Assembly (NCBI GenBank): GCA_028279595.1
Contig: JANQNK010000020.1
Span: 224,001-288,000, forward strand
Source: Thermoplasmatota archaeon
Lineage (GTDB): Archaea; Thermoplasmatota; JAKEGO01
DNA: 64,000 nucleotides
Direction: 5' to 3'
The notes beneath the pieces are model-generated. The model ran no database searches. It had not been told where the DNA came from and saw only the letters and a program-made list of their open reading frames with translations. The position numbers and the translations under genes are program-made. Below, piece by piece: positions 1-27,738 of the stretch (positions within the stretch are counted from its first letter, which is position 1; every line of letters begins with the position of its first letter).

Positions 1-3000
1 CGTCCTCAGGACCGGCATCAGGATCCTCAAGGAAGGACCCGGGACGGCCCTGGTAGGCGAGACCATCACATACACAGTGACGATCTGGAACACCGGCGAG
101 GTACCCCTCTACATAACGAAGGCATACGACGGCCTACTTCAGGAGGATATGGTCACGCTCGTCTCACCAAATCCGATCCCGGTCGGCGGATCGACGTCGT
201 TCACCTATACGTGGACCGTCTCGCACGACGACAATGACCCGCTCATCAACGAGATCCGCATCTGGAGCGAGAACTCCAACGGCGGCGACGAGCGCTATGT
301 GACCTACTGGATATCTACCGACATCAAGTACACCGGTGTCGAGATCACGAAGACCGGCCCGACCGATGCGGTCGTCGGCGAGGAGATCGCCTACACCATC
401 GTGGTGACCAACACCGGCGAGGTGGACCTGACGATAACCTACCTCTGGGACAGCCTGCTGGGAGACCTCAGCGGATACATCACCGACGGTGAGATCACCG
501 TGGGAGAGGAGTTCGAGACCATAATCTACGACTACACGATCACGACCGACGACACCGATCCGCTCTACAACGAGGTCACCGTGATCGGCGAGAACGATGT
601 CGGCGGCGACGAGGTCACCGACAGCGCCGACCACACCGTGGACATCCATTACACCGGCGTGTTGATCGAGAAGACCGGACCCGCGACCGCGGAGGTATGG
701 GAGACCATCACCTACGAGGTCACCGTTACGAACATCGGAGACACTGACCTGTACATAGACGAACTCGAGGATACCATCATCGGCGATCTCAGCGGATACA
801 TATCCGATCAGGTCATAACCGTCGAGGAAGGGTCCGAGACCTTCACCTACACATACAAGGTCACCGACGAGTACGATCCGCTCATCAACGAGATCACTGT
901 CGAGGGCAGCAACTACGAAGGTGGAGAGACCGTGACCGCCACGGACGACCACTCTGTCGACCTGCTGCGCACAGGTGTCGAGATAACCAAGACCGGACCT
1001 TCGACCGCGATCGTCGGCGAGACGATCACCTACACCGTGACGATCGAGAACACCGGTGAGGTGGACCTCCACGTCACCTCGCTCATGGACACCCTCCTGG
1101 GCGACGTGAGCGGTTACCTCGACGACCTCGTTATCGCCTACGGAGAGACCGATACGATCACCTACCAGCATACTGTGACATCGACCTTCGATCCGCTCCC
1201 GAACGGCATCAACATCAATGTGGAGAACCAGTACGAGAGCGACTGGATAAGCGACAACGACGACCACTCGGTCGACATCCTCAGGACCGGCATCGAGGTC
1301 ACGAAGACAGGACCGCAGACCGGAGAGGTGGGCGAGACGATCACCTACACCATCACCATCGACAACACTGGAGAAGTCGACCTGTACATCACTCAGTTCG
1401 ACGACTCGCTCCTGGGCGACCTACTCGACATCCTCGGCTACGGACCGTCCAATCCGCTCGTTGTCGAACCATTGATCGATTCATTCTTCGACATAACCTA
1501 CGAGATCGATATCGAGGACCCGGACCCACTCCCGAACACTGTCACCGTGACCGGTGTGAACGAGAAGGACGATGACCAGGTCACCGGCGGAGACGATCAT
1601 TCCGTCGACATCCTCAGAACGGGCATCGAAATCACGAAGGACGGCCCATCCTCTGCCGAGATGGGCGAGGTGATCGAGTACACGATAACCATCAAGAACA
1701 CGGGCCAGGTGGACCTGTACATCTACACGCTCTACGACAGCCTCCTGAACGACCTCACCAGCTACATCACCAACCCGATCGCGGCCGGCGCCACTGTCAC
1801 CTTCAACTACTACTATACGGTCACACACTCGGACGACGATCCCCTCGAGAACGGCATCTATGTCTCCGCATACAACTACTACGGAGCCGATGGAGTGGTG
1901 GACTACGACTCGCACACCTGCGACCTCAAGTACGCCCGCATGAGCATAGAGAAGACCGGACCGGCCACTGCCGAGGTGGGCGAGGAGATCATGTACACCA
2001 TCACCATCTACAACGACGGTGAGGTGGACCTGTACGTCTCCTACCTCTGGGACAGCTACGAGGGCGACCTGAGCGGCCTGATCACCGGCGGCGTGATCAC
2101 CGTGGCGGAAGGCTTCGAGACGATCACATACACAAGGATAGTATCCGGAGCCTACGACCCGATCTACAACGAGGTCGAGGTCATCGCTGACAACTACTAC
2201 GAGGGCGACGAGGTCACGGATACCGATTCGCACTCGGTGGACGTCCTCAGGACCGGTGTCGAGATCACCAAGACCGGACCGGCCACTGCAGAGGTCGGCG
2301 AGGAGATAACCTACACAGTGACCATAGAGAATACCGGCGAGGTAGACCTCTACATCTACGCGCTCTACGATTCACTCGTGGGCAGCCTGATGAGCCATAT
2401 TACGAACCCGCTCGCCCCTGGAGAGATAGTGACCATCACCTACACCTATACGGTGCAACAGGGCGACAGCGATCCTCTCGAGAACACGGTCACCGTCAGG
2501 AGCTACAACTGGTACCAGTCCGACGGAAGGATCGAGTCCGCGACCCACTCGGTAGACATCAAGTATACAGACGTCAGCATAACGAAGACGGGACCGACGG
2601 ACGCAGAACCCGGGGATACGATAACCTACACCATTACAGTATACAATGATGGTGAAGTGGACCTGTACATCGACTCCCTCATGGACTCGCTCCTCGGAGA
2701 CCTGATCCTCGAGATCAGCGACGGCAAGATAACCGTCGCCGAGGGCTACGAGACATTCACCTACGACTATCTGGTACTGTCCTCCGACCCGGACCCGTTG
2801 ATCAACACGATCACTGTCGTGGGATCGAACAGCAATGACGACGATACCGTAACCGACACCGCAAGCCACGAGGTCGACCTTCAGAAGGTCGACTTCACGA
2901 TCGAGAAGACCGGACCGGAGACCGCGGAGGTGTGGGAGCAGATCACCTACACGGTCAGGATCACGAATACTGGAGACACGGACCTTTACGTCACCTACCT

Positions 3001-15000: not shown

Positions 15001-16580
15001 GATCACGAAGACCGGACCATCCTCCGCAGTGGTCGGTGAGACCATAGAATACGAGATCACCATCGAGAACACTGGCGAGGTTAGCCTCGACATCACATAC
15101 CTCGACGACACGCTCCTCGGCGACCTGCTTGGTGAGCTGACATCGACAACGATAGCCTCTGGCGCCACAGTGACGATATATGTGGACTATCTCGTTACCG
15201 ACGAGTACGACCCGATCGAGAACACCGTCACCGTAAAGGCATGGAACCAGTACGACAGCGACCCGGTCGAGGACTCGGATGACCATTCGTGCAACCTACT
15301 CCGGACCGGAGTGAGCATAACCAAGGCCGGCGGACCGGACGAGGCATCGGTCGGCGAGGACATCACCTACACCATCACGGTGACCAACACCGGAGAGGTG
15401 GACCTCCACATCACGTACCTCTGGGACAGCCTCCTGGGGGATCTGAGCGGCTACATCACCGGAGATGTGATCACGGTCGGCGAGGGCTATGAGACCATCA
15501 CATACGATTACACCGTACAGAGCGGCGACCCCGACCCCCTCATCAATGAGGTGACCGTCATCGGCGAGAACTCGGAGGGCGGCGACGAAGTGACGGACTC
15601 CGCGGAACACTCCGTGGACCTGCTCCTGATCGGCGTCATCATCGAGAAGACCGGACCCGCTACAGCCGAGGTCTGGGAGTGGATCACGTACACCATTACA
15701 GTATACAACACTGGTGACGTGGACCTCTACATCGATGAGCTAGACGACGACATCATCGGCGACCTCAGCGGCAAGATCAGCGACGGCGTGATCACCGTCG
15801 CAGAGGGCTCGGAGACCTTCAGCTACCTTTACAAGACGACTGATGTGTATGATCCTATCTTGAATACGGTGACCGTGGTTGGAACGAACGAGTACGACGA
15901 TGATGAAGTGACGGAATCGGACAGTCACTCCGTCGACCTGCTCAGGACGGGAATCGAGATCGAGAAGACCGGACCGGAGACCGCAATGGTGGGTGAGGAG
16001 ATCACCTACACCATAACCATCAGGAACACCGGAGAGGTCGATTACTACGTCACGAACCTCGTGGACGCCATCTATGGAAATATGATCAGCGAGGTCGATA
16101 GCCCGATCGTTGTGGGCGACACTGTGTCCTTCACCTACGATCACACCGTGACCGATGCTTACGATCCGCTCCCGAACGCGATCAACATCAACGGACAGAA
16201 CCAGTTCGGTTCTGACTGGATCAGCGACTCCGACGGACACTCGGTGGACATCTACCGCACCGGCGTCTCGATAACCAAGACCGGACCGACGGAGGCACAG
16301 GTCGGCGACACCATCACGTACACCATCAAGGTGACGAACGAGGGCGAGGTCGATCTGTACATCTACGAGCTCGAGGACACCATACTGGGCGACCTGAGCG
16401 GAGAGATCAGCGGCGGCGTGATAACGACGACCGAGGGCTACGAGGAGTTCACGTACGACCACGTGGTCAGCGTGGACGACGACGACCCGCTGCTGAACGA
16501 GATCACCGTCAAGGGATGGAACATCCACGACGGGGACATCGTGACCGATTCCGCCGAGCACAGCGTGAACATCGTATATG
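1..16580 (+). repeat. 52 type-A intragenic repeats of about 104-111 aa (DUF11/DUF7507-like)
   Basis: Counted by eye from the recurring K-[TSED]-G-P motif at about 315-330 nt spacing. Confidence 0.85.
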
Positions 16581-19500
16581 TGAAGGGAACGCTGTACGTC
16601 GAGAAGACCGGGCCCGCTACCGCTTACCATGGCGATGAGGTAACCTACACGATATACGTGACCTACGACAGCTCCGACGACTCGCCCGCCCAGAACGTGG
16701 AGGTTGTGGACGATCTCTACGGCACAGCGACATACGTGAGCGGCGACACCGACGGCGACGGATACCTCGATACCGACGAGACCTGGGAGTACGAGGTCAC
16801 TGGAACCATCCCAGACCACTCCGAACCCGAGACCGATCCGATCGTGAACACCGCGACGGCGACCGGTGAGAACCTCGACGGCGACGACGTCACACCCGGT
16901 GAGGGAAGCCACAGCACCGACATCCTCCACACGGAGGGAGAGTTCACGATCGTGAAGGACGGTCCGGCTACCGCCTACCACGGCGATAGCGTGACCTACA
17001 CCTTCACGGTGACATACTCGAGCGATGACGGCTCCCCGGCCGACGGCGGCTATGTATGGGACGACCACTATGGCTATGCAACGTATGTGAGCGGTGACAC
17101 CGACAGTGATACCGATATGGACGTCGATGAGACCTGGATATTCGAGGTGACGGGAACCATCCATTCGACATACTACGATGGCGAGGAGAACCCGATACAC
17201 AACACGGTCGAGGTCGACGGATACGACCTGGATGGCGACTGGTGTGGCCCTGCATACGACGACCACTACACTACGATCCTCCACGAGGAAGGAACACTGT
17301 ACGTGGACAAGCAGGGGCCGACGGTGGCCTACTTCGGCGATTCGATGACCTTCAATTTCTACGTGACCTACGAGAGCGATGACGACTCCCCGGCAGACAA
17401 CATTGTCGTCTGGGACGATCACTATGGAGCTCCGACCTACGTCTCTGGCGACACCAACGGCGACGGATATCTCGACACCGATGAGACGTGGCTGTACACA
17501 AGGACTGTCTACCTCACGTCGTACTACTACGACTCGCATGAGGACCCGATCATCAACACCGTTGAGGTCACCGGCACGGACCTGGATGGTGACACCGTGA
17601 CACCCGGCGAGGACAGTCACCAGACCGACATCCTGCACCGGGAGGGCGAGTTCACGATCGTGAAGGACGGGCCCGCGACGGCCTATCATGGCGATTCCGT
17701 CACATACACGTTCGAGGTGACATACTCGAGTTCGGACCATTCCCCGGCCCAGTACGTACAGGTCTACGATGACCACTACGGATACGCAACCTACGTGAGC
17801 GGCGACACCGACGGAGACGGGAAGCTGGACTACTCCGAGACCTGGACCTACAAGGTGACCGGTACGATCGGCGCTCACTACGATGGTGAGGAGGACCCGA
17901 TCGTCAACGAGGTCATGGTCTGGGGTTACGACCTCGATGATGACTTCGTGGGATATGCCTACGATGATCACTCCACCGATATCCTGCACACCGCCGGAAC
18001 ACTCTACGTGGAGAAGACCGGACCTGCGACCGCCTACCACGGACAGACCGTGACATACTGGTTCTATGTGACCTACGAGAGTGATGACAATTCACCGGCC
18101 GACGACGTCACTGTCGACGACAACAAGTACGGAACCGCGACATACTACGGCGGCGACACCGACGGCGATGGACTTCTCGACACTGATGAGACCTGGGTGT
18201 TCTACGTTATCGTTACCATCGGCGACCACGAGGACGACGAGGAAGACCCGATCGTCAATACCGGAAAAGCGACCGGCATCGACCTTGACGGCGATGCAGT
18301 GACGCCTGGCGAGGACACTCACGAGACCGACATCCTCCACTACGAGGGCGAGTTCTGCATCTTCAAGACCGGACCCGCGACCGCCTATCATGGCGACGAT
18401 GTGACCTACACGATAACCGTCAAGTACAAGAGCGACGACGACTCCCCGGCCCAGTATGTCGAGGTGGTCGACAGCATCTACGGCGATGCGGACTACGTCA
18501 GCGGCGACACCGACTTCGACGACCTCCTGGACGTCGACGAGACCTGGACCTTCACGGTCTCCGGAACGATACCGGATTACTCCGAACCCGAGACCGACCC
18601 GATCATCAACACGGCCAAGGTGACCGGCAAGGACCTGGACGACGACGTGATCGAGCCGGCCGAGGACACCCACAGCACCGACATCCTCCACAGGGAGGGA
18701 AGGCTGACCGTGGAGAAGGACGGACCCGAGACCGCGTATCACGGCGATGAAGTAACATACACGTTCGAGGTGACATACTCGAGCACTGACGGATCCCCGG
18801 CGGACGATGTCGAGGTGACGGATGATGTATACGGAGATGCGACCTACGTCAGCGGCGACACCGACGGCGATGGCCTGCTGGACGTCGACGAGACCTGGGT
18901 CTTCGAGGTGACGGGATACATCAGCTCCACCCACAGCGATGACGAGGAGAACCCGATCGTGAACACCGGAACCGCCACAGGTATCGACCTGGACGGAGAC
19001 GCGGTCACACCGGGCAAGGACTCCCACGAGACCGAGATCCTCCACCGCGAGGGCGAGCTGACCATCGTGAAGGATGGACCGACCTCGGCATACCACGGCG
19101 ATTACGTCACATTCACGTTCGAGGTAACATACTCGAGCGCGGACGACTCGCCCGCCGACGACGTCAAGGTCTACGACGACATCTTCGGATACGCCGACTA
19201 CGTCAGCGGAGACACCGATGACGACGGATTGCTGGACGTCGACGAGACATGGGAGTTCGAGGTCAGCGGTTACATCGGCCTCCACGATGACGACGAGGAC
19301 GATCCGATGGTCAACACCGCCGAGGCGACAGGAATCGATCTGGACGGCCAGGACGTTACACCCGGCGAGGACAGCCACGAGACCGACCTCCTCCATCGGG
19401 CGGGCACCCTGTACGTGGACAAGACCGGACCGGCGACCGCCTACCACGGCGATGACGTGACATACCTGATATACGTGACATATGACAGCAGCGATGACTC

Positions 19501-22500
19501 GCCCGCAACGGAAGTGGAGGTCACGGACGACGTCTACGGAACCGCTACCTACGTTTCCGGCGACACTGATGACGACGACCGACTTGACGAGGGAGAGACC
19601 TGGGTGTTCAAGGTCACCGGTACGATACCTGACTACTCCGAACCCGAGACCGACCCGATCGTGAACACCGCGACGGCCACTGGCGAGGACCTTGACGGGG
19701 ATGATGTCACACCGGGCGATGATACCCATAGAACGGACATCCTCCACACGGAAGGTACACTCTATGTCGAGAAGACCGGACCGGCTCAGGTTTACCACGG
19801 AGATACCGTGGCCTACTGGTTCTACGTGACCTACTCCAGCACCGACGGCTCACCAGCTGACGATGTCGCAGTGGACGACGACAAGTACGGCTCAGCGACA
19901 TACTACGGCGGCGACACCGACGGCGACGGTCTGCTCGACACGGACGAGACATGGTTGTTCTACATCACCGTGACCATCGGCGATTACGAGGATGACGAGG
20001 AGGACCCGATCATCAATATCGGCATGGCGACCGGCGTGGACCTCGACGGCGACGCGGTCGAACCCGGCTACGGCCGTCACTCCACCGACATACTGCACCG
20101 CGAGGGCACGCTGTATGTCGAGAAGTGCGGACCGGCGACGGCCTACCACGGCGACGACGTCAGGTACACGATCAAGGTGACCTACGAGAGCGACGACAAC
20201 TCACCGGCGGACAATGTTGAGGTCATAGACAGCATCTATGGTGACGCGACCTACGTGAGCGGCGACACGGACAGCGACGGACTGCTGGACGTCGATGAGA
20301 CCTGGACCTACTACGTCGATGGCACGATCGGCGCACACGACGACGATGAGGATGACCCGATCATCAACACCGCCAAGGCGACCGGTACGGACCTTGACGA
20401 GGATCCGGTGACTCCGGGCACGGACGACCACAGCACCGACATCCTGCACACCGAGGGCACGCTATACGTGGAGAAGACCGGACCAGCCGAGGCATATCAC
20501 GGCCAGACCGTGACCTACTGGTTCTACGTGACCTACTCCAGCGATGACGGCTCTCCGGCAGATGATGTCGCAGTGGACGACGACAAGTACGGCCCCGCGA
20601 CCTACTACTACGGCGACACCGACGGCGATGGCCTGCTCGACCCCGGCGAGACCTGGGTGTTCTACATCATCGTGACCATCGGCCCATACTCCGACACCGC
20701 GGAGGACCCGATCACCAACACGGGCAAGGCGACCGGCGTAGACCTGGACGGCGATGAGGTCGAGCCTGGCTACGGCCGTCACACCACCGATATCCTCCAT
20801 TGGGATGGAATCCTATCGGTCGAGAAGTACGGCACAGAAGAGGCCTACCACGGCGACACCGTGACATACTACTTCGATGTGACCTACGAGAGCGACGACG
20901 ACTCACCTGCTCAGTCCATAAGTGTCGTGGACGACCTCTACGGATCGGCAACATACGTCAGCGGCGACACCGACAGCGACAGCCGGTTGGACGTCGGCGA
21001 GACCTGGAAATACACTGTCTCCGGGACCATCGGAGCCCACGATGACGACGAGGAGGACCCATTGGTCAACACCGTCACCGTGACGGGCGAGGACCTTGAC
21101 GGCGACACCGTGACACCTGGCGAGGACTCTCACGAGACCGACATCCTGCACAGGGAGGGAGAGCTCTCGGTCAGGAAGGACGGACCTGCTTCCGTGTACC
21201 ACGGCACGACCGCCACCTACACGATCTACGTGACCTACTCGAGCGATGACAACTCCCCGGCCCAGAACGTTGCGGTCGTGGACGACCTGTACGGAACCGC
21301 TACCTACGTGAGCGGAGACACCGACACCGACGATCTGCTCGATGTGACCGAGACGTGGAGATACACGGTCTCCGGAACCATCGGAGCCCACGACGACGAC
21401 GAGGATAATCCGATCAGGAACACCGCGACGGCCACAGGCGAGGACCTGGACGGCGACGAGGTCACACCGGGCGAAGGATTCCACGACACCACGATCCTCC
21501 ACAGGGAAGGTACCCTCTACGTCGAGAAGAGCGGACCGGCAACGGCTTATCACGGCGACGAGGTGACCTACACCTTCGAGGTGACCTATGAGAGCGCAGA
21601 CGACTCGCCTGCCGTGGACATCACCGTCCTCGATGACGAGTTCGGATACGCCGACTACGTCAGCGGCGACACCGATGGCGACGATCGGCTGGACGTCACC
21701 GAGACGTGGACCTACGAGATCACCACGACGATCGGCATATACGTGGACGGCGAGGAGGACCCGTTGGTCAACCGCGTCGAAGTGAACGGATACGACCTCG
21801 ATGGCGACGAGGTGACCCCGGGCGAGGACGAGCACGAGACGGACTTACTGTACTACGTCGGCAAGTTCTGCATCGACAAGGACGGACCGGACGAGGCCTA
21901 TCACGGGGACACAGTGACCTACACCATCACCGTCAAGTACAAGAGCGACGACGACTCACCGGCGAAGAACGTCGAGGTCGTCGACGACATCTACGGAACA
22001 GCTACATACATCAGCGGTGACACCGATGGCGACGGCCTGCTGGACGTGACCGAGACCTGGAAGTTCGAGGTCGAGGGAGAGATAGGCGATTACGAGGAAC
22101 CCGAGGACGACCCGATCGTAAACACCGCAACTGTGACCGGCCAGGACCTGGACGACGATGACATCCCATCCAGTTCGGACTCGCACAGCACCGACATCCT
22201 GCATCGCGCAGGAGTACTGACCGTTGTGAAGAGCGGTCCCGCGACGGCATACCACGGCGATGACGTGACCTACTACTTCGAGGTGACCTACTCCAGCGAT
22301 GACGACTCACCCGCTCAGAACGTACAGGTCACCGACGACCTCTACGGGAGCGCTTCCTACGTGAGCGGCGACACTGACGGCGATAATCTGCTGGATGTCG
22401 ACGAGACGTGGGTGTTCAAGGTCGAGGGAACGATCGGCGATTACGTCGATGGAGCGGATGATCCCATCGTGAACACCGGAACAGCAACAGGCGATGACCT

Positions 22501-25500
22501 GGACGGCGATACCGTCACGCCTGGCTCCGACGATCACGAGACCGACATCCTCCATCGGGAGGGCAAGCTCACGATCGTGAAGGACGGTCCGGATACCGCC
22601 TACCACGGCGACGATGTGACCTACACCTTCGAGGTGACCTACACCAGCGACGACGACTCCCCGGCAAAGGACGTGACGGTCGTGGACGACACCTTCGGTA
22701 CAGCTTCCTACGTGAGCGGCGATACCGACTCCGACGGACTGCTCGACACCGATGAGACCTGGACCTTCGAGGTCGAGGGAACCATCGACGACCATGAGGA
22801 CGACGAGGAGGACCCGCTTGTCAACGAGGCCACCGCATCCGGTCAAGACCTGGATGGCGACGACGTGACACCCGATACCGACGACCACAGCACCGACATA
22901 CTCCACAGGGAGGGAAGGCTGACGGTCGAGAAGTCCGGACCTGCCACCGCCTACCACGGCGATTCCGTGACCTACACGTTCGAGGTGACCTACTACAGCA
23001 CCGACGGCTCACCGGCCGACAACGTTCTGGTAATCGACGACACCTATGGCTCCGCGACCTACGACAGCGGGGATACCGACGGCGACGATCTGCTCGATGT
23101 CGGTGAGACCTGGATATTCAAGGTCACAGGGACCATCGGCGCACACGTCGACGGCGAGGAAGACCCGATCGTGAACACGGTCACCGTGACCGGCGAGGAC
23201 CTGGACGGCGACGCCGCCACATCCGACACCGACACCCATTCGACCGACATCCTCCACCGTGAGGGCGAGTTGACCGTCGTGAAGTCCGGCCCAGAGGAGG
23301 CCTACCACGGCGACGACGTCGAGTACACGATCGAGGTGACATACTCGAGCGATGACGACTCGCCCGCCGACAACGTGGAGGTCACCGACGACGTCTACGG
23401 CGACGGCACATACGTGAGCGGCGACACCGACGGCGACGGATTGCTCGACGTCGATGAGACCTGGAAGTTCACCGTCAGCGGTACTATACCGGACCACGAG
23501 GACGACGATGACGAAGAGATCGTGAACACGGCAACGGCGACAGGCGAGGACCTCGACGGCGACACCGTCACCCCGGGCAGCGACGAACACACCACCGAGA
23601 TCCTCCACACCGCCGGCGAGCTGACGGTGACCAAGACCGGACCATCGAGCGCGTACCACGGCGATGATGTCGAGTACACCATCAAGGTGAGCTACTTCAG
23701 CTCCGATGGATCGCCAGCCCAGAACGTGTTCGTCGAGGACGACAAGTACGGCGTGGCGACCTACGTCAGTGGTGACACCGACGGCGACGGCTACCTAGAC
23801 ACCGACGAGATCTGGACCTATACGGTCAGCGGCACCATCGGCGATTACGAAGATGATGAGGAAGACCCGATCATCAACACCGTCGAGGCCACCGGATACG
23901 ACTTAGACGGCGACGAGGTCGATCCAGGAACCGCGACCCACAGTACCGACATACTCCACTACGCTGGCGAATTGACCGTGGTAAAGAGCGGTCCGGCCGA
24001 GGCACACGATGGCGACCAGGTGACATACACGATAGAGGTGACCTACTCGAGCGACGACAACTCCCCCGCCCAGAGCATACTGGTAGTTGACGACATCTAC
24101 GGATCCGCTTCATACGTGAGCGGTGACACCGACGGCGACTATCTGCTCGACACGGATGAGACATGGACCTACTCGATCACCGAGTACATCGATGAGGCGG
24201 AGGACGATCCGATCGTGAACACGGCTACCGCCACGGGTTACGACCTGGATGGCGACTCGGTCACACCAGGCGAGGGCGAGCACTCGACGGACATACTGCA
24301 TCCGGATATCACCGTGACCAAGAGCGGTCCCGAGGAGGCCCACGAGGGCGACACGGTAACCTACACGATCAGCGTGGAGAACACGGGCGATTGCACGCTC
24401 TACGATGTGACGGTGACCGATGACGTCCTCGGCGATCTGACCTCCTACCTGACCGACACGACGCTCGACGTCGGCGAGACCGACACCTTCACGGTGACGT
24501 ACACGGTACCCACATCCAGCTGGACCACTGACGAACTGATCACCAACGGCGGATTCGAGACCCCTGTCGGGACGGACTCGGCGGGCTGGGACATCTTCCC
24601 GGACGGCACGACCGGTCTCGGCTGGTCGGTCGATTGGTACTCCACAGATACCACCTACGGCGGCGGTACCAGGCCCGAGACGGCCAACCTCGAACTCCAG
24701 TGGGGAGTGACCGGTTGGGATCCCGCCGAGGGAGACCAGTACGCCGAGCTCGACGCCGATTGGGACGGACCGGACGGAAGCCTGTCCGGGGAACCCGCAT
24801 CTGTGAGCATATACCAGGATGTCGACACCGACGACGGAGAGACCTACAGGTTGACCTTCGCCTTCTCCCCGAGGCCGGGACAGGACGAGACCCAGAATGT
24901 CCTTCTCATCCACTGGGGAGACACACTGGTCGACACGATCGAACTGGACGGCTCCTCGAACTCGGATTGTGAGTGGTACTACTACTCCTACGATCTCGTC
25001 GCAAGCGATGATACCATGGAGATAAGATTCTCCGACGGCGGCGATTCCGATTCCCTCGGAACGTTCCTCGACGACGTGAGCCTGCGCACCATGGACTACC
25101 TCACGAACACCGTTACAGTGACCGGAGAGGACAACCTCGACGAGGAGGTCACTGACAGCGACTCCCACGATCTCGACGTACTCCACCCGGAGATAGATGT
25201 AGTGAAGGTCGGACCGTCGGAGGCCCATGAGGGTGACACAATAACATACACCTTCACCGTCTCGAACCTCGGCGACTGCCCGCTCTACGACGTGACCGTC
25301 GAGGACGACATACTCGGAGACCTGATCGGCTACATGACGGACGACACGCTCTCCGAGGGCGAATCCGAGACCTTCGACGTCGAATACACCATACCCGACG
25401 GTACACAATCCGTCGTGAACACCGTGGACGTCGAGGGTACCGACAACCTCGGAGAGACCGTCTCCGACAGCGCAACACACGACATCCCGATACCGCTGAT

Positions 25501-27610
25501 CGTACTGCATCCGGACATCGAGATCACGAAGGTGGCCGACAAGACCACTGCCCGCGTGGGAGAGACCGTGACCTTCACGTTCACGGTGACGAACACCGGC
25601 GACTGCACTCTCTACAAGGTATACGTGATCGACGACATCTTCGGAAACCTGACGACCTGGCTCGAGGACACGACCCTTGACGCCGATGAATCCGAATCTT
25701 TCGACTACGAGTGGGAGGTCCCCTATCCGGAGCTCACCGGTTCGGACGACTGCGACTCGTGCGACGATGACGATGATGACACTGACGACTCCGGCTCCAG
25801 CTGCTGGGACAAGTACATGAAATGGTGCAAATGGTGGAAGTACCGCTCCTGCGACGACGATGACGACGATGATGACGACTGCGGTTCATGCGACGATGAC
25901 GACAATGGGTGTGATGACGACTGCACCAGTTGCGACGACGACGATGAATGCGATGACTGCGGTGGAAGCTACGGCGACGATGACGAGTGCGACGACTGCG
26001 GCTCGGCCAAGTGCGACGATGATTGCGGAGACGATTGCGACTGCGATGATTGCACCAACGATTGCGACGACGGCGATTGCGATCCCGACGTGGAACTCGT
26101 GACCAACGGCGGCTTCGAGAGCCCTGTCGGCACCCACAGCTCCGGATGGAACATCTACGACGACGGCACGACCGGCCTTGGCTGGTCCGTCGATTGGTAC
26201 TCGACGACCACATCGTACAACGGCGAGAGCAGGCCGGAGACCGCCCACCTCGAGATCCAGTGGGGCGTCAACGACTGGAACGCCGTCGAGGGTGACCAGT
26301 ACGCCGAGCTCGACACCGACTGGGACGGACCGGGCGGCGGACTCAACAAGGAGCCCGCCTCCGTGACCATCTACCAGGACATCGACACCGTACCTGGTCA
26401 GAAGTACAAGCTGACCTTCTCGACCTCGCCGAGGCCTGGCAAGGACGACGAGCAGAACGTGCTCCACGTCAACTGGGACGCCACCCTTGTCGACACCATC
26501 GAGGAGGACGGATCGTCCAACAGCAGGAACTACTGGACCAACCACTCCTACGTGCTGACCGCGACCGACACCACGATGACCCTGAGGTTCACCGACGGTG
26601 GAACGCCTGACTCGCTCGGGACGTTCCTCGACAATGTGAGCCTGCGGTGCATAGCTGACGACTGCTGCGACCTCGAGTGGCTCTACGATGAGCACAACAA
26701 CATCGTCGACGTCGCCGGCAAGGACAACCTCGGTCAGTGGGTCCAGGACTCCGACACCGAGACCGTGATCGTACTGAACCTGCCATACACCAACCTGACG
26801 AACTCCGAGCTCTGCTACTTCGACACCCTCGACCGCGACGGACAGCAGTTCAACCTGACCTTCGTGGACAAGGACTGCGAGGACGACGACGACGAATACG
26901 ACGACATCTGCTGCTGGAAGTACAAGCTCTGCGGTAAGCACACATCCTGCTGTGAGGGAGGCGACGACGATGATGACGACGACGATACTAGCACGGATAC
27001 CACGTACAAGCTCTCGTCGAGCACCCCGAGTCAGTTCTACTACAACGTGTTCCACATCGGCGAGGAGGGCGACGATTACTCGCTCGACATAACCATCCCG
27101 TATCCGTTCGTGACCCATGGACTGAACCCGATACACGTCTATAGCGGAGTGCGCTTCAGCAGCAGCGGTTGCTACATCCCGTGCGGAGACGAGCTCGAGT
27201 TCGACGAGAGCGGCACCGACACGACAACGAAGTCGGGTGCCCTCGGAATCCTGCTCTCGGACCACTCGGATGGATCTGTGACGATAACGATCGAGGGCAC
27301 CGTGCCCGAGAGCGGTCTTGTCTACATAACCATCTACCTCGACTACGGCCTCGAGGGCAAGAAGGGTTACACGCCGGACGACGACGACAATGCGGAACAC
27401 GACACCTACACCAACTTCGACATCGATCAGTTCACCGAGTACGTGTTCTCCGTGAGTGGAGATATGGAGGACGAGCTGACCATCGAGAACAACAACGTCT
27501 TCGAGGGCGACGGCGACGACGACACCGACGATCTGCCGCTGGACCCGACCATCGTCTTCTTCGCGATGGCCGCGGTGCTGATCATCTTCCGCAAGAAGCG
27601 CAGGTACTGA
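1..27610 (+). CDS. Giant repetitive cell-surface protein/adhesin (>9,200 aa, 5'-truncated by the window): 77 DUF11-like Ig repeats, 2 DUF642-like domains, Cys/Asp-rich segment, C-terminal membrane anchor
   Basis: The ORF track gives 77..27610, but the same frame is open from nt 2 (VLRTGIRILKEGPGTALVGETITYTV), so the real start lies upstream of the window. Repeats follow the pattern I-x-K-T-G-P...G-E-T-I-T-Y-T-I-T-V-x-N-T-G...D-x-L...P-L-x-N-T-V-T-V. The protein ends LPLDPTIVFFAMAAVLIIFRKKRRY. Confidence 0.93.
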   Translation, partial: VLRTGIRILKEGPGTALVGETITYTVTIWNTGEVPLYITKAYDGLLQEDMVTLVSPNPIPVGGSTSFTYTWTVSHDDNDPLINEIRIWSENSNGGDERYVTYWISTDIKYTGVEITKTGPTDAVVGEEIAYTIVVTNTGEVDLTITYLWDSLLGDLSGYITDGEITVGEEFETIIYDYTITTDDTDPLYNEVTVIGENDVGGDEVTDSADHTVDIHYTGVLIEKTGPATAEVWETITYEVTVTNIGDTDLYIDELEDTIIGDLSGYISDQVITVEEGSETFTYTYKVTDEYDPLINEITVEGSNYEGGETVTATDDHSVDLLRTGVEITKTGPSTAIVGETITYTVTIENTGEVDLHVTSLMDTLLGDVSGYLDDLVIAYGETDTITYQHTVTSTFDPLPNGININVENQYESDWISDNDDHSVDILRTGIEVTKTGPQTGEVGETITYTITIDNTGEVDLYITQFDDSLLGDLLDILGYGPSNPLVVEPLIDSFFDITYEIDIEDPDPLPNTVTVTGVNEKDDDQVTGGDDHSVDILRTGIEITKDGPSSAEMGEVIEYTITIKNTGQVDLYIYTLYDSLLNDLTSYITNPIAAGATVTFNYYYTVTHSDDDPLENGIYVSAYNYYGADGVVDYDSHTCDLKYARMSIEKTGPATAEVGEEIMYTITIYNDGEVDLYVSYLWDSYEGDLSGLITGGVITVAEGFETITYTRIVSGAYDPIYNEVEVIADNYYEGDEVTDTDSHSVDVLRTGVEITKTGPATAEVGEEITYTVTIENTGEVDLYIYALYDSLVGSLMSHITNPLAPGEIVTITYTYTVQQGDSDPLENTVTVRSYNWYQSDGRIESATHSVDIKYTDVSITKTGPTDAEPGDTITYTITVYNDGEVDLYIDSLMDSLLGDLILEISDGKITVAEGYETFTYDYLVLSSDPDPLINTITVVGSNSNDDDTVTDTASHEVDLQKVDFTIEKTGPETAEVWEQITYTVRITNTGDTDLYVTYLDDDIIGDLSGSVDPNPIPVGEYAEFTYLYTVTAEWDPLINEITMTGENELGEDEITKSDTHSVDLLRTGVEIYKEGPDIAMVGQEITYTVTVVNTGEVDYYVTYLDDTLIGDVSGYITDDVITLSEGSETFSYTHTVTAQYDPLPNAVNVNGQNQFGSDWVSDSDGHSCDILHPGVEITKTGPEEALVGEEITYTIRVTNTGETDLYITSLYDSILGDISSYVDGGVVTLAEEYDEFDVTYVVPQSTPDPLVNEVTVVGTTIHGGESVTASASHEVDILYTGVRIIKTGPLDAEVGETITYEVTVYNTGEVTLYITSLTDTLVGNLRDEISGYMITVAEGSETFTYTYTVTDTWDPLVNTITVNGENMYDANPVTDSSTVSVDVLRTGVEIYKTGPLEAEIGETITYEITVINTGDVTLYITSLEDTLGGDLTGYLASLELAAGAYDIFTYTYTVLATDPDPLGNTVTIEGWNQYDSDPVSDTDGHSVDILRTGVRIEKTGPTTAEVGQTIMYTIVVTNTGEVDLHLTSLSDTLGGDLLGQISGSVITTGEVSETVYYYHTVGSTPDPLPNTVTVTGWNSHDMDQVSAEDSHSVDVLHAGISIEKSGPETAEVGETITYTVTMTNTGEVDLYIDYLWDLLVGDQLWQITNPLEPGDSVTFTYQYTVQQNDEDNLYNWIYVEAYNQYQSDFVYDYEEVWVDILYTGVTIEKTGPETAEVGETIEYEVTITNTGEVDLYITYLWDSLVGDVSGLITNPIASGTSVTIYYYYTVQQDDPDPLVNEIWLRAWNQYQSDPQGGHDTHSVDILYTAISIEKTGPTDAEIGEEITYTITIYNDGEVDLKITYLYDTLLGNLLSEIPSGVVTYADGSYSFDYTYTVLLSDDDPLPNVITVTATNLYDSDPVGDEDDHSVNLKYTGVEITKTGPAIGEVDETITYTITIENTGEVDLYITDLDDTLLGDLIGEITNPIAPGDTFSFDYDYTIVLGDEDPLPNVVTVIATNEFGGNEVTDLARWFVDIPYTGIEITKTGPSTGEVGETITYTIKVDNTGEVDLYVTSLDDTLLGDLLDEISDGIITTTEDYEEFTYEYTIKDTDANPLPNVITGEGENQYGGDYVIDSAAHQVEILYTGMEVWKEGPYNAEIGETITYTIYIKNTGDVDLEITDIDDTLLGDLTSEVTGAIAPGATFSFDYDYTVLETDPNPIWNTVTVKATNQYDEDPVQDSDYWGVQLLYTGVEIEKSGPLTAEIGETITYTITVTNTGGVDLHLTELDDTVLGDLLYKISDAKITVAEGSETFTYDYTIPDPTSEPLDNTITVTATNQYGGDEVTDTASHSVDLMYTGVEIEKSGPTTAEVGETITYQIVVRNTGEVDLHISSLTDDILGNLIGYLASTTIAAGDYDYFDVDHVVEATPDHLINTVTVVGDNQYDADEVTDDASHECDVLRTGVTIEKTGPATAEIGEVIKYTITVTNTGEVDLYVTIDDTLLGDITAGITGGVVTTLEGSESFDYYYVVQWDDPDFLENEVTVTGKNVEGEDKVTDTDDHEVDLLYTGVTIEKTGPTTAEIGETITYYVTITNTGEVPLYIDYLDDSLVGDVSGLVSQPIAVGTSQTISYEYTVLENDPDWLENTIRLRVFNRNQMDAKVVSDSHSVDLLYTGVEITKTGPDYAEVGQTITYTITIKNTGEVDLYVYWLYDSLLGSLLGEITNPIAPGATVSFDYDYTVLWTDPTSLYNSITLYAYNYYEANVRMDSDDHTVTLLYADVEITKTGPTDAEIGETITYTIRVTNTGNVDLTITTLYDTLLGDLSGEITDGVITTTEGYEEFTYDYTVKQTDTDPLPNEIEVVATNQYGTDTVSDEASHSVNLKYTGMEVTKTGPATAEIMEYITWTISIENTGEVDLYITSLDDTMFGDILDTLGYDELNPLVIAPGDTWTVTISKNIFSSTDDPIENTVTVTATNQYDSDPQEGADSHEVDVLWASIKIDKSAVGTAQIGQTITYTIVITNDGEVDLDITYLWDTLLGDLSTYLSTGSIAAGTSETITVTYLVTDEYDPIENTVTVKAWNQFEADQVEASDDHSCDLLRTGMTMEKTGPATVEIGETVYWDYLVTNTGEVPIYLTHVDEVLIEDWYWPTPFYIGVGGSQSFYWGSGYTVTTADDDPLVNSATFYADNYYGEDEVQSTDDHESDILRTGIEVTKTGPEEAEVGETITYTITVKNTGEVNLYVTLIDSYYGDLTSYLTNPLAPGETQTFDYDHTILSTDDDPLVNTITASGVNQYQADPVSDEASHTVEILGTGVEITKTGPTTAEVWEEIVYTYTVTNTGEVDLYISSIDDSLHGELKNYISGGVITLLEGSETFTITHQVTQTPDPLVDEVTVYGENSNGGSQVQYYDDHTVDILYTGVEITKTGPAEAEVGEEITYTVTIKNTGEVDLYVTSLMDTLLGDVSGYLDDLVIPVGVTDTIQYTHTVTSVYDPLPNGININVENQYESDWKSDNDDHSVDILRTYLTVEKTGPADAEIGETITYTVTLTNDGEVELTITGMEDDLVDDVFDLLTDTTLDVGESVSISYTHTVAYLGPDPLLNTVTVTAENQYGEDEVEESDDHSVDILRTGVDILKEGPDFAMIGEVITYTITVYNTGEVDLYITKLEDSNVGDLSGEISGGVITVEEGFEVITYEWTVTLDDANPLKNQVVVIGVNQYGNDPVADSYCHGLWLLYTGVEIEKDGPEEAEVGEEITYTVTIENTGDVDLYITYLYDSLVGSLLGEITNPLEEGDSVTITYTYIVTEDYDPLVNTITVRGVNFYEADEQEETATHSVDVLRTDIDIWKQSPADAKIGDKIIYTITVWNLGEVDLYITELEDSLLGDLSIYITGGVVSVAEGKEVITYEYTVTDEYEPLINTIEVTAWNQYDSDEVSDAARSEVEILRTDVEIVKTGPETAELGETIEYEVTITNTGDVDLYITYLYDSLVGDLLDEITNPLEPGDSVTFTYEYTVKTTDQTPLENTIEVRGWNCHELDPTSDEDSHSVDLLRTGVRITKDGPDDAEIGETIIYTIVVYNTGNVDLHITYLWDSLLGDLSGEISGGVITVAEGSETITYEYTVTDEDPDELDNTVTVRGTNEFGEDEVEDDASHTVDLLYTSMEIWKEGPETAEIGETIYYKVYIQNIGEVDLYVTLIDDDPWGDLLAAIGQSPTDPWIVPVGQTSWITYTHIVTTSDPDPLINTVTVEAENQYGADPQDGEDSHSTDILRTGMEVTKTGPDNAEIMEYITYTITIENTGQVDLYITELDDSMFGDLLDSWGYDELNPLIIEPGDTWTVYISFNVFTSHSDPILNTVTVTGTNQYGADPQEDSDSHETDILRASIDIDKSAVETAQIGQTITYTIVITNDGEVDLDITYLWDTLLGDLSSYLSTGSIAAGTSETIYVTYLVTDEYDPIENTVTVRAWNQYDADQVEASDDHSCDLLRTGMTMEKTGPATVEIGETVYWNYHVTNTGEVPIYLTHVDEVLIEDWYWPTPYYIGVGGSQTFYWIGGYTVTTADDDPLVNSATFYADNYYGEDEVQSTDSHSSDVLRSDITIEKTGPATAEVGEEITYEVTITNDGEVDLEITYLYDSLVGSLLGELTTGWISAGSSETITYTYTVLSTDDTPLENTITVTGQNQYGEDEVSAEDDHSVALLKTGVRIEKYGPTTAELGQTITYTIRVTNTGNVDLTITDLDDTLLGDLYSEISGGVITTTEGFEQFTYDYTVTSADTDPLGNTITVDATNQFGGDPVSASDSHSVDILYADLSIEKSALTTAQVGQTLTYTFVITNDGEVDLDVTYFFDSLLGNLIGYLDTGTIAAGTSETITVDHLVTDVYDPIYNYVTITAWNQYDSDAQSDSDSHTCDLLRTGIDVAKTGPATAEVGEQYYYTYTVYNTGEVTLYFDTIQDTLKGDFTWTTPFAVPVGGNQVILWTYTATDEFDPIENTATFTGWNEYDEDEVTDSDDHEVDLLRTNIEITKTGPSSAVVGETIEYEITIENTGEVSLDITYLDDTLLGDLLGELTSTTIASGATVTIYVDYLVTDEYDPIENTVTVKAWNQYDSDPVEDSDDHSCNLLRTGVSITKAGGPDEASVGEDITYTITVTNTGEVDLHITYLWDSLLGDLSGYITGDVITVGEGYETITYDYTVQSGDPDPLINEVTVIGENSEGGDEVTDSAEHSVDLLLIGVIIEKTGPATAEVWEWITYTITVYNTGDVDLYIDELDDDIIGDLSGKISDGVITVAEGSETFSYLYKTTDVYDPILNTVTVVGTNEYDDDEVTESDSHSVDLLRTGIEIEKTGPETAMVGEEITYTITIRNTGEVDYYVTNLVDAIYGNMISEVDSPIVVGDTVSFTYDHTVTDAYDPLPNAININGQNQFGSDWISDSDGHSVDIYRTGVSITKTGPTEAQVGDTITYTIKVTNEGEVDLYIYELEDTILGDLSGEISGGVITTTEGYEEFTYDHVVSVDDDDPLLNEITVKGWNIHDGDIVTDSAEHSVNIVYVKGTLYVEKTGPATAYHGDEVTYTIYVTYDSSDDSPAQNVEVVDDLYGTATYVSGDTDGDGYLDTDETWEYEVTGTIPDHSEPETDPIVNTATATGENLDGDDVTPGEGSHSTDILHTEGEFTIVKDGPATAYHGDSVTYTFTVTYSSDDGSPADGGYVWDDHYGYATYVSGDTDSDTDMDVDETWIFEVTGTIHSTYYDGEENPIHNTVEVDGYDLDGDWCGPAYDDHYTTILHEEGTLYVDKQGPTVAYFGDSMTFNFYVTYESDDDSPADNIVVWDDHYGAPTYVSGDTNGDGYLDTDETWLYTRTVYLTSYYYDSHEDPIINTVEVTGTDLDGDTVTPGEDSHQTDILHREGEFTIVKDGPATAYHGDSVTYTFEVTYSSSDHSPAQYVQVYDDHYGYATYVSGDTDGDGKLDYSETWTYKVTGTIGAHYDGEEDPIVNEVMVWGYDLDDDFVGYAYDDHSTDILHTAGTLYVEKTGPATAYHGQTVTYWFYVTYESDDNSPADDVTVDDNKYGTATYYGGDTDGDGLLDTDETWVFYVIVTIGDHEDDEEDPIVNTGKATGIDLDGDAVTPGEDTHETDILHYEGEFCIFKTGPATAYHGDDVTYTITVKYKSDDDSPAQYVEVVDSIYGDADYVSGDTDFDDLLDVDETWTFTVSGTIPDYSEPETDPIINTAKVTGKDLDDDVIEPAEDTHSTDILHREGRLTVEKDGPETAYHGDEVTYTFEVTYSSTDGSPADDVEVTDDVYGDATYVSGDTDGDGLLDVDETWVFEVTGYISSTHSDDEENPIVNTGTATGIDLDGDAVTPGKDSHETEILHREGELTIVKDGPTSAYHGDYVTFTFEVTYSSADDSPADDVKVYDDIFGYADYVSGDTDDDGLLDVDETWEFEVSGYIGLHDDDEDDPMVNTAEATGIDLDGQDVTPGEDSHETDLLHRAGTLYVDKTGPATAYHGDDVTYLIYVTYDSSDDSPATEVEVTDDVYGTATYVSGDTDDDDRLDEGETWVFKVTGTIPDYSEPETDPIVNTATATGEDLDGDDVTPGDDTHRTDILHTEGTLYVEKTGPAQVYHGDTVAYWFYVTYSSTDGSPADDVAVDDDKYGSATYYGGDTDGDGLLDTDETWLFYITVTIGDYEDDEEDPIINIGMATGVDLDGDAVEPGYGRHSTDILHREGTLYVEKCGPATAYHGDDVRYTIKVTYESDDNSPADNVEVIDSIYGDATYVSGDTDSDGLLDVDETWTYYVDGTIGAHDDDEDDPIINTAKATGTDLDEDPVTPGTDDHSTDILHTEGTLYVEKTGPAEAYHGQTVTYWFYVTYSSDDGSPADDVAVDDDKYGPATYYYGDTDGDGLLDPGETWVFYIIVTIGPYSDTAEDPITNTGKATGVDLDGDEVEPGYGRHTTDILHWDGILSVEKYGTEEAYHGDTVTYYFDVTYESDDDSPAQSISVVDDLYGSATYVSGDTDSDSRLDVGETWKYTVSGTIGAHDDDEEDPLVNTVTVTGEDLDGDTVTPGEDSHETDILHREGELSVRKDGPASVYHGTTATYTIYVTYSSDDNSPAQNVAVVDDLYGTATYVSGDTDTDDLLDVTETWRYTVSGTIGAHDDDEDNPIRNTATATGEDLDGDEVTPGEGFHDTTILHREGTLYVEKSGPATAYHGDEVTYTFEVTYESADDSPAVDITVLDDEFGYADYVSGDTDGDDRLDVTETWTYEITTTIGIYVDGEEDPLVNRVEVNGYDLDGDEVTPGEDEHETDLLYYVGKFCIDKDGPDEAYHGDTVTYTITVKYKSDDDSPAKNVEVVDDIYGTATYISGDTDGDGLLDVTETWKFEVEGEIGDYEEPEDDPIVNTATVTGQDLDDDDIPSSSDSHSTDILHRAGVLTVVKSGPATAYHGDDVTYYFEVTYSSDDDSPAQNVQVTDDLYGSASYVSGDTDGDNLLDVDETWVFKVEGTIGDYVDGADDPIVNTGTATGDDLDGDTVTPGSDDHETDILHREGKLTIVKDGPDTAYHGDDVTYTFEVTYTSDDDSPAKDVTVVDDTFGTASYVSGDTDSDGLLDTDETWTFEVEGTIDDHEDDEEDPLVNEATASGQDLDGDDVTPDTDDHSTDILHREGRLTVEKSGPATAYHGDSVTYTFEVTYYSTDGSPADNVLVIDDTYGSATYDSGDTDGDDLLDVGETWIFKVTGTIGAHVDGEEDPIVNTVTVTGEDLDGDAATSDTDTHSTDILHREGELTVVKSGPEEAYHGDDVEYTIEVTYSSDDDSPADNVEVTDDVYGDGTYVSGDTDGDGLLDVDETWKFTVSGTIPDHEDDDDEEIVNTATATGEDLDGDTVTPGSDEHTTEILHTAGELTVTKTGPSSAYHGDDVEYTIKVSYFSSDGSPAQNVFVEDDKYGVATYVSGDTDGDGYLDTDEIWTYTVSGTIGDYEDDEEDPIINTVEATGYDLDGDEVDPGTATHSTDILHYAGELTVVKSGPAEAHDGDQVTYTIEVTYSSDDNSPAQSILVVDDIYGSASYVSGDTDGDYLLDTDETWTYSITEYIDEAEDDPIVNTATATGYDLDGDSVTPGEGEHSTDILHPDITVTKSGPEEAHEGDTVTYTISVENTGDCTLYDVTVTDDVLGDLTSYLTDTTLDVGETDTFTVTYTVPTSSWTTDELITNGGFETPVGTDSAGWDIFPDGTTGLGWSVDWYSTDTTYGGGTRPETANLELQWGVTGWDPAEGDQYAELDADWDGPDGSLSGEPASVSIYQDVDTDDGETYRLTFAFSPRPGQDETQNVLLIHWGDTLVDTIELDGSSNSDCEWYYYSYDLVASDDTMEIRFSDGGDSDSLGTFLDDVSLRTMDYLTNTVTVTGEDNLDEEVTDSDSHDLDVLHPEIDVVKVGPSEAHEGDTITYTFTVSNLGDCPLYDVTVEDDILGDLIGYMTDDTLSEGESETFDVEYTIPDGTQSVVNTVDVEGTDNLGETVSDSATHDIPIPLIVLHPDIEITKVADKTTARVGETVTFTFTVTNTGDCTLYKVYVIDDIFGNLTTWLEDTTLDADESESFDYEWEVPYPELTGSDDCDSCDDDDDDTDDSGSSCWDKYMKWCKWWKYRSCDDDDDDDDDCGSCDDDDNGCDDDCTSCDDDDECDDCGGSYGDDDECDDCGSAKCDDDCGDDCDCDDCTNDCDDGDCDPDVELVTNGGFESPVGTHSSGWNIYDDGTTGLGWSVDWYSTTTSYNGESRPETAHLEIQWGVNDWNAVEGDQYAELDTDWDGPGGGLNKEPASVTIYQDIDTVPGQKYKLTFSTSPRPGKDDEQNVLHVNWDATLVDTIEEDGSSNSRNYWTNHSYVLTATDTTMTLRFTDGGTPDSLGTFLDNVSLRCIADDCCDLEWLYDEHNNIVDVAGKDNLGQWVQDSDTETVIVLNLPYTNLTNSELCYFDTLDRDGQQFNLTFVDKDCEDDDDEYDDICCWKYKLCGKHTSCCEGGDDDDDDDDTSTDTTYKLSSSTPSQFYYNVFHIGEEGDDYSLDITIPYPFVTHGLNPIHVYSGVRFSSSGCYIPCGDELEFDESGTDTTTKSGALGILLSDHSDGSVTITIEGTVPESGLVYITIYLDYGLEGKKGYTPDDDDNAEHDTYTNFDIDQFTEYVFSVSGDMEDELTIENNNVFEGDGDDDTDDLPLDPTIVFFAMAAVLIIFRKKRRY
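16581..24300 (+). repeat. 22 type-B intragenic repeats of about 117 aa (mostly a 351-nt period), each with a DxDxDGxLDxxE-type loop
   Basis: The unit EGxLxVxKxGPxxAYHGDxVTY...YVSGDTDGDGLLDVDETW...DPIVNT...HxTDILH recurs with starts at e.g. 19400, 19751, 20102, 20453 and 20804. Confidence 0.88.
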
Positions 27611-27621
27611 GCAACAAGCAA

Positions 27622-27670
27622 TGGAGGGGGGCGACCCCCTCCACCCCCCTCTTTTTTTTACTTTTTCTCT
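27622..27670 (+). terminator. GC-rich hairpin followed by T-tracts downstream of the giant gene
   Basis: TGGAGGGGG-GCGA-CCCCCTCCA (9-bp stem, GNRA loop) then CTTTTTTTTACTTTTTCT, between convergent genes. Confidence 0.7.
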
Positions 27671-27738
27671 TCAGCTTGAGCTGGGCCTCTTTCGTCTTAC
27701 CCTGGACTACAATAACCTTCAATATCGATCTCTCGTCA

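Follow-up and report, generated by a model that had tools for sequence, protein, structure and literature searches.

We analysed a 64,000-nt stretch of the genome of a coral-associated, uncultured Thermoplasmatota archaeon (hereafter the window; C18:224001-288000 of genome bin G000) and found that its first 27,610 positions belong to one giant gene. The complete gene, which begins to the left of the window, occupies C18:210358-251610 (about 41 kb) and encodes 13,750 amino acids (aa), most of them in immunoglobulin (Ig)-like repeats. It is one real gene, and we consider it most likely, with a probability of roughly 0.6, that its product is an exported fibre, anchored in the membrane at its C-terminus and acting as a long-reach tether or adhesin. 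The protein is of a known kind, the microbial stalk protein, and is new in its extreme size. The bin comprises 2.29 Mb on 21 contigs, is 86% complete with 0.2% contamination, and devotes 1.8% of its assembled sequence to this gene alone.

A single open frame

In the window the stop-free frame runs over positions 2..27610 of the forward strand (9,202 codons by the open reading frame (ORF) listing) and is open at the left edge. Leftwards along the contig it continues for 13.6 kb, and the stop codon that bounds it is a TGA at C18:210349. The first ATG is found at C18:210358, 13,643 nt outside the window and 7 nt past a Shine-Dalgarno (SD)-like GGAGGTGA, with AT-rich, TATA-like boxes further upstream. 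A separate genome-wide scan recovers the identical open frame (13,752 codons), and the chance that so many codons stay open is about 1e-199, as computed from base composition. The product has a mass of 1.50 MDa and a pI of about 4, and is rich in Thr (14.5%) and Asp (12.6%). It contains 20.7% Asp + Glu and 2.8% Lys + Arg, against genome means of 14.4% and 9.9%, and includes poly-Asp runs. Only two hydropathy peaks occur in the 13,750 aa, one at residues 4-27, within a signal-peptide-like leader that begins MRKSVATALVMALLVQMISAGVLITM, and one at residues 13725-13746, at the C-terminal end.

Domain order

Domains were segmented with hidden Markov models (HMMs) made from the protein's own repeats, and the resulting tiling is nearly gap-free. 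From the N-terminus the order is leader, 94 type-A repeats, 22 type-B repeats, three type-C domains, a tail domain, an acidic linker and a transmembrane (TM) anchor, which places 119 Ig-like domains in one chain. The A repeats start at residue 52, straight after the leader; 42 of them lie left of the window and 52 inside it, and the final three codons of A repeat 42 are window positions 2-10. The features of the window that make up the gene and its 3' end are as follows.

1..16579 (+): type-A repeats 43-94 of 94, 104-113 aa each, CLIPPER_2/DUF7507 (self-HMM, Pfam)
16580..24301 (+): 22 type-B repeats, 114-118 aa, CLIPPER-like Ig domains with EF-hand-type loop DTDGDGLLDVDE (self-HMM, TRF, Pfam)
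24302..25186 (+): type-C domain 1, Cys-containing and CLIPPER-type, split by a nested DUF642-like domain at 24533-25090 (A-HMM, Pfam)
25187..25498 (+): type-C domain 2, CLIPPER-type, without interruption (A-HMM, 68.9 bits, positions 2-104)
25511..26776 (+): type-C domain 3, interrupted by two inserts, a Cys/Asp-rich segment and the other DUF642-like domain (A-HMM positions 2-69, then inserts)
26777..27502 (+): membrane-proximal tail domain, 242 aa, with acidic/Cys insert (without Pfam match; AlphaFold2)
27503..27610 (+): acidic linker, TM helix PTIVFFAMAAVLIIF (27545-27589), basic RKKRRY and TGA (27608-27610) (hydropathy)
27623..27659 (+): GC-rich hairpin GGAGGGGG/CCCCCTCC and a T8 run behind it, together a likely transcription terminator (sequence inspection)

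A sequence-only reading of the window had described most of this architecture. The single stop-free frame of more than 27.6 kb, open to the left, agrees with the ORF listing, and its counts of 52 A, 22 B and 3 C repeats are exactly those of the self-HMM segmentation. The nested domains it saw in class C are the DUF642-like insertions found in two of the three, and its unique C-terminal domain and membrane anchor are the tail domain and the TM helix with basic tail. It had proposed to seek a start and signal peptide to the left, where the ATG and the signal-peptide-like N-terminus are indeed located. It had also taken the DNA to be archaeal, with which the nearby genes agree, and had named Pfam analysis of the repeats and a possible collapse of the repeats as checks; the former assigns them to DUF7507 and DUF11, and there is no sign of the latter (see below).

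The repeats belong to the CLIPPER families

All three repeat types are members of the CLIPPER/CLIPPER_2 (DUF11/DUF7507) family. Type A matches DUF7507 at 99.3 bits (cut-off 27) and DUF11 at 58.1 bits (cut-off 24.6), type B matches DUF11 at 37.4 and DUF7507 at 35.7 bits, both over cut-off, and the type-C region matches DUF7507 at 121.1 and DUF11 at 79.6 bits. Across the ORF, 79 Pfam matches reach cut-off, some only together with in-frame neighbours. These families were renamed CLIPPER_2 (DUF7507, PF24346) and CLIPPER (DUF11, PF01345) in a survey that reported a crystal structure (9IFR), an internal Lys-Asn isopeptide bond with a catalytic Asp, and the use of these domains to build fibrillar-adhesin stalks in archaea as well as bacteria (PMC12617251, Protein Sci 2025).

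The residues of this triad are retained almost throughout the stalk: Lys in 92, Asp in 92 and Asn (in DPLxN) in 93 of the 94 A repeats, and all three in 22/22 B repeats. Lys and Asp align to the 9IFR motifs VDVVK and LNDTL, and the spacing from Lys to Asn is 71 residues in type A and 81 in type B, compared with 80 in the DUF7507 reference. From these residues we infer that the repeats would form the bond. Mean pairwise identity is 47% among A repeats and 64% among B repeats.

We modelled a B-B pair with AlphaFold2, using other B-B pairs as the alignment. The model (pLDDT 95.7) is all-beta with eight strands per domain, and resembles 9IFR (Z 8.3, rmsd 2.7 over 95 residues, 19% identity), the tandem repeats of the Marinomonas primoryensis ice-binding RTX adhesin MpIBP (5IRB and 4P99, Z 9.9 and 9.7 over 180-183 residues) and tandem Ig-like structures generally. 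For type B, the predicted structure thus shows a tandem CnaA-like, Ig-type beta-sandwich. Searched against the sequences of solved structures, the A profile gave marginal matches only (8CXJ, E 0.003; 9IFR, E 0.04), and nothing matched the B-B profile.

An EF-hand-type loop in the type-B repeats

The B array, which TRF detects with a period of 351 and 21.5 copies, carries the loop DTDGDGLLDVDE and a second motif, DLDGD. The loop agrees with the EF-hand pattern of 12 residues, in which 1, 3, 5, 9 and 12 are ligands, 6 is Gly and 8 is hydrophobic; positions 1, 3, 5, 8, 9 and 12 are kept in 21-22 of the 22 repeats, and 13 repeats match the pattern in its strict and 19 in its relaxed form. In the B-B model the loop lies between beta-strands (residues 55-68), without a helix-loop-helix context, and Pfam EF-hand models score under cut-off on the protein's repeats. 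It is a grafted DxDxDG-type loop and not an EF-hand domain, and we infer from its ligand positions that it would bind calcium. As the same loop recurs in B-like repeats of a same-order genome (G002) and of bacterial giants (for example DTNGNGLLEAGE in the protein P0181), type B is a conserved subtype that did not originate in this gene.

The membrane-proximal end

Two of the three type-C domains carry inserted modules. In domain 1 the A-HMM matches at positions 2-73 and 69-105, with 146 aa between; domain 2 also matches DUF7507, DUF11 and CARDB; the inserts of domain 3 are a Cys/Asp-rich segment of about 120 aa (25724-26089) and a DUF642-like domain (26090-26650). Both DUF642-like insertions are at the same loop. 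They match DUF642 (PF04862) at 49.3 bits jointly and at 28.9 (domain 1) and 31.6 bits (domain 3) singly (cut-off 27), in an alignment that covers the C-terminal part of the model (positions 66-156), while the choice-of-anchor C model (TIGR04362, NCBIfam) scores 93 bits, under its cut-off of 120. These putative jelly-rolls may bind carbohydrate. From type C onward, towards the membrane, lie 37 of the 59 Cys residues of the whole protein.

The tail domain has no Pfam match, and yet it is widespread. Its conserved core of about 170 aa contains the motifs SxPxQFYYN and ITIYLDYGL (SNPGQFYYN and VTIHLDYGLK in relatives), and a search of 1.84 billion proteins with the domain returned 596 representative clusters at E<=1e-3. 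In these the domain usually lies near the C-terminus of surface proteins, often behind CLIPPER repeats, and is often followed by a carboxypeptidase-regulatory-like domain in place of the TM helix; its carriers include Thorarchaeota, Nitrososphaerota, Bathyarchaeia, Methanomassiliicoccales, Verrucomicrobiota, Chloroflexota and Acidobacteriota. The AlphaFold2 model (pLDDT 89.4) aligns under VIA-align with domains of CnaA/DEv-IgG type, as in the adhesins and pilins of Gram-positive bacteria, with PrgB on top (Z 9.7), then GPI transamidase, AgI/II and pilins; the top match is moderate and is taken to indicate fold class only. Foldseek matches are weak (TM <=0.46), and a Protein Atlas look-up returned scores of about 0.8 only, which are uninformative. 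We read the domain as a common membrane-proximal stalk base lacking a Pfam model.

The C-terminus (tail LPLDPTIVFFAMAAVLIIFRKKRRY) has no PGF- or PEF-CTERM motif, and none of the CTERM models in NCBIfam matched it; endings of these types are found on dozens of other proteins of the genome. Pfam and NCBIfam scans of the C-terminal 1,100 aa also found no RTX/HemolysinCabind family. A 457-aa exported protein encoded at window 32904-34277 (+) ends in TPFDP-TM-SRKRRN, and the giant (27536-27607) in LPLDP-TM-RKKRRY. We considered a new 'PxDP-CTERM' sorting signal and rejected it, as the ending occurs in only two or three proteins of the genome, which is too few.

Repeat divergence, selection and an orthologue

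The longest exact internal repeat in the 41-kb gene is 42 bp. DNA identity between copies is 55-70%, does not exceed 70% over long stretches, and comes near 85-90% in a few closest pairs; because of this divergence, short reads can place each copy. Logan contigs, produced from the source run by a different assembler, match window positions 9518-27900 with zero mismatches, three stretches of 320-900 nt between pieces being uncovered; over most of this region the ends of successive contigs overlap, and depth is flat at 18-30x with a single spike at a poly-Asp low-complexity stretch.

Purifying selection acts on the repeats. The ratio dN/dS between paralogous repeats is 0.05-0.29, and one pair is 93% identical as protein with only 85% identity as DNA, which indicates that the repeats are translated and under selection. 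The array also contains an old segmental duplication of 13 repeats (offset 4,152 nt), within which the atypical repeats 70-72 and 83-85 (window ~8603-9571 and ~12755-13723) retain 76-93% protein identity while their neighbours have drifted to 43-55%. As only these three have stayed alike within the duplication, selection acts on them.

The only same-family genome at hand, G001 from a sister genus, encodes a protein whose leader resembles that of the giant and which has 17 or more A repeats, in a gene truncated by the end of its contig. This gene adjoins one that is 67% identical to the upstream neighbour of the giant gene, and it is thus the positional orthologue.

Scarcity of N-glycosylation sequons

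The giant protein contains only eight N-x-S/T sequons, compared with 98.9 +/- 8.8 in residue shuffles (observed/expected 0.08), and has none in window residues 1-8,548 (window 2-25645). When residues were shuffled within alignment columns, the A array, with three sequons, was expected to have 25.9 +/- 3.7, and no shuffle out of 500 came down to its count; the B array lacks sequons against 1.9 expected, which is not significant alone, as 37 of 500 shuffles were also at zero. By comparison, the observed/expected ratio is 1.3-3.3 in all but one of the genome's 29 other ORFs of at least 2,028 aa, the exception being at 0.98. It is 0.4-1.4 in bacterial relatives, 1.2 in the array of the G001 orthologue and 1.95 in the B+A part of the G002 protein; three tail-domain relatives, one of them from Thorarchaeota, have ratios of 0-0.22.

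The genome does encode a homologue of the oligosaccharyltransferase STT3/AglB. The genome's single STT3 match is inside a 2,441-aa frame (G000:C4:30056-37298 (+)) with a TM helix and basic tail at its end, which suggests AglB fused to a large extracellular region. Given this homologue, and the depletion relative both to shuffles and to the comparison sets, the stalk appears to be selected to stay free of N-glycans. A stronger version, which we regard as distinctly unlikely, is that the scarcity is a matter of design: a bare, isopeptide-locked, calcium-loaded and hyper-acidic rod of 0.5 micrometre amid giants that look heavily glycosylated.

Comparison with known giant proteins

The protein shares with CLIPPER stalks its domain family, its triad, the arrangement of a tandem stalk between signal peptide and C-terminal anchor, and its occurrence in archaea. 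The survey of these stalks drew on AlphaFold DB entries no longer than 1,280 aa (PMC12617251), compared with 119 domains in one chain here. The giant also differs from a typical CLIPPER adhesin in its two domain-in-domain DUF642 insertions, the lack of a distal head and the scarcity of sequons, and its isopeptide bonds are predicted ones. The sequence-only reading was correct in calling it a surface protein of Ig-like repeats, of a kind that turns out to be already described.

Among 400 other Thermoplasmatota species sampled, no frame with A- or B-like repeats exceeds 3,205 aa, many of these genomes being fragmented. A search of 5.8 billion proteins for relatives of 5,061-16,104 aa returned none longer than 7,936 aa, so that the giant is about 1.7 times longer than the longest relative in that range. 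Those with names are all bacterial (for example from Algoriphagus, Echinicola and Microbacterium). Two uncharacterised DUF7507 giants from bacteria, that of Algoriphagus namhaensis (7,743 aa, T9SS-sorted) and P0181 (5,642 aa, ending in LPQTG), likewise consist of dozens of A- and B-like repeats, with the EF-hand-type loop in P0181; the present protein is archaeal and has a plain TM anchor in place of a T9SS or sortase signal. JGI metagenome contigs yielded no relatives in two scans, whose queries were the C-terminal 1,102 aa and the B-B alignment respectively.

MpIBP is close in size and design: it has the same mass, 1.5 MDa, and some 120 Ig-like domains in tandem, each of about 104 aa. Its stalk is stiffened by calcium and reaches about 0.6 micrometre. 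It differs in belonging to another domain family, in its secretion by a type I system, in its attachment to an outer membrane, and in carrying ligand-binding modules at its far end; its repeats are nearly identical, whereas those of the giant average 47% (A) and 64% (B) identity. No RTX families are matched in the giant, and the likeness is one of fold and design only.

Halomucin of Haloquadratum walsbyi (9,159 aa; PMC4378361), long quoted as the largest archaeal protein (PMC4378361, PMC1544339), is likewise archaeal, extracellular and of giant size, and a signal sequence is predicted for it. Unlike the giant, it is mucin-like, is thought to form a water-retaining coat and lacks CLIPPER arrays, and it was absent from the results of our homology searches. 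The sequence-only reading had put the protein in this size class at more than 9,200 aa, which is right for the part in the window; the whole protein is 1.5 times as long as halomucin, and is membrane-anchored. It is not the size record for archaea, since archaeal proteins of more than 10,000 aa, mostly from Asgard archaea, have already been reported (bioRxiv 10.1101/2023.11.21.568195).

Tether, coat or other arrangement

We propose that the chain would be exported via the Sec pathway and that the stalk domains would fold outside the cell, each locked by an Asp-catalysed Lys-Asn isopeptide bond. The 22 B domains would bind calcium in their EF-hand-type loops and so stiffen the membrane-near third of the stalk, and the C-terminal helix would keep the fibre in the membrane. 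Ig-like domains are 4-5 nm long, and 119 of them would project about 0.5 micrometre from the cell. The membrane-proximal end would consist of the two DUF642-like jelly-rolls, the Cys/Asp-rich segment and the CnaA-like tail domain. Such a fibre could tether the cell to host material, particles or other cells, and would work like the calcium-stiffened MpIBP with domains of a different family.

Several observations weigh against this proposal. Fibrillar adhesins are recognised by a repeat stalk, a cell anchor and an adhesive domain at the distal end; the first two are present here, and there is no recognisable binding domain at the N-terminal tip. The sequence-only reading had placed the distal tip outside the window, where it does lie; as the A repeats begin at residue 52, that tip is without a head domain. 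The candidate binding modules are found only beside the membrane, which is the reverse of the usual adhesin layout. The orthologue in G001, by contrast, has a head of about 330 aa (L013 (G001:C7) 5431-6435 (-)), consisting of an unknown domain and SdrD_B, to which we found no counterpart anywhere in G000. The N-terminal hydrophobic stretch, at about 22 aa, is long, and the leader might not be cleaved. Isopeptide bonds and calcium binding are both predictions from conserved residues, and the structural model is one of type B. Finally, among public sequencing runs only the source coral metagenome carries the DNA, and no RNA run does; the test of coverage used the same reads as the assembly, and thus checks the assembler and not the sample.

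Because the tip lacks a head and the modules that might bind are at the base, a role as spacer or coat is a serious rival, to which we assign a minor yet substantial share of the probability. Here the same molecule would be a non-adhesive spacer, brush or protective coat, forming an acidic, cation-binding layer of about 0.5 micrometre with the purpose of halomucin. Its extreme acidity (Asp + Glu 20.7%, Lys + Arg 2.8%), its 22 EF-hand loops and its poly-Asp runs would suit such a layer, as would the elaborate cell surface suggested by the 25 large ORFs (2,183 aa or more) that occupy 11.8% of the assembly. A coat, however, has no need of 119 domains in a single chain, and it is in fibrillar adhesins that CLIPPER stalks are typically found (PMC12617251). 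The tether or adhesin is also favoured by the head that the G001 orthologue carries at its tip and by the two DUF642-like domains, as putative carbohydrate binders.

We consider a different topology improbable. The N-terminus could be an uncleaved anchor, which would leave both ends in the membrane and a giant loop between them, or the chain could be cut from its anchor and shed. The first would be in keeping with a hydrophobic stretch of about 22 residues (4-27), long for a signal peptide, and the second with the PxDP motif, TM helix and basic tail shared with the protein at window 32904-34277, which could be a processing signal. Past the hydrophobic core, however, there is a small-residue site, ISA|G, matched by FGA|G in the G001 orthologue; the PxDP ending is confined to two or three proteins of the genome, and the two exosortase-family genes are more simply paired with the many PGF-/PEF-CTERM proteins. 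An assembly artefact, in which the assembler stretched a shorter repeat gene or fused several genes into one, is the least probable account and very unlikely: the sequence does come from a metagenome bin, is seen in the source sample only and rests on short reads, but the copies are diverged enough for short-read placement (longest exact repeat 42 bp), depth is flat and the Logan contigs show no differences over 9518-27900, and it would be very rare for a chimera to stay in frame over 13,750 codons and to show types A, B and C in order together with a start, an anchor and a terminator.

Genomic surroundings

The giant gene stands alone, as the upstream flanking gene (DEAD/H-associated) points away from it and the downstream one converges on it. 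The latter, at window 27739-28644 (-), encodes a Na+/Ca2+ exchanger and so meets the 3' end of a gene rich in calcium loops; we rejected it as a functional partner, since adjacency is the only basis for the pairing. Genes for tRNA-intron endonuclease and PurP lie nearby and fit an archaeal origin. Many antisense ORFs of up to 849 aa overlap the giant gene at window 164-27400 (-), and are presumably shadows of biased codon usage.

Other large surface proteins may be encoded in the same genome. Within the window, a 1,807-aa protein of right-handed beta-helix/NosD repeats (49826-55249 (-)) is a probable example. Elsewhere in the genome there are unrelated giants of 8,214 aa with a transglutaminase core, of 5,547 aa with PA14, FG-GAP and PKD domains, and of 5,516 aa with no Pfam match in the first 3,000 aa; examples of loci of such giants are C1:16643-41285 (-), C1:127940-144581 (+) and C11:91857-108405 (+).

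Implications

The giant shows how far the isopeptide-stalk design stretches in archaea, in a size range to which the 2025 survey, blind beyond 1,280 residues, had no access. Its single chain presents 116 naturally diverged versions of a putatively self-locking domain, which could aid studies of tandem-repeat folding as well as protein engineering. The contrast between a sequon-free stalk and sequon-rich surface proteins in the same genome is a clean natural one, and bears on the role of N-glycans in archaeal surfaces. If the scarcity of sequons were indeed a matter of design, a bare rod could pass through, or pack within, the glycan and S-layer coat, and could bind calcium-rich surfaces such as the aragonite skeleton of corals, or acidic mucus, directly; it would then represent an unrecognised design rule and mode of attachment for archaeal surface fibres.

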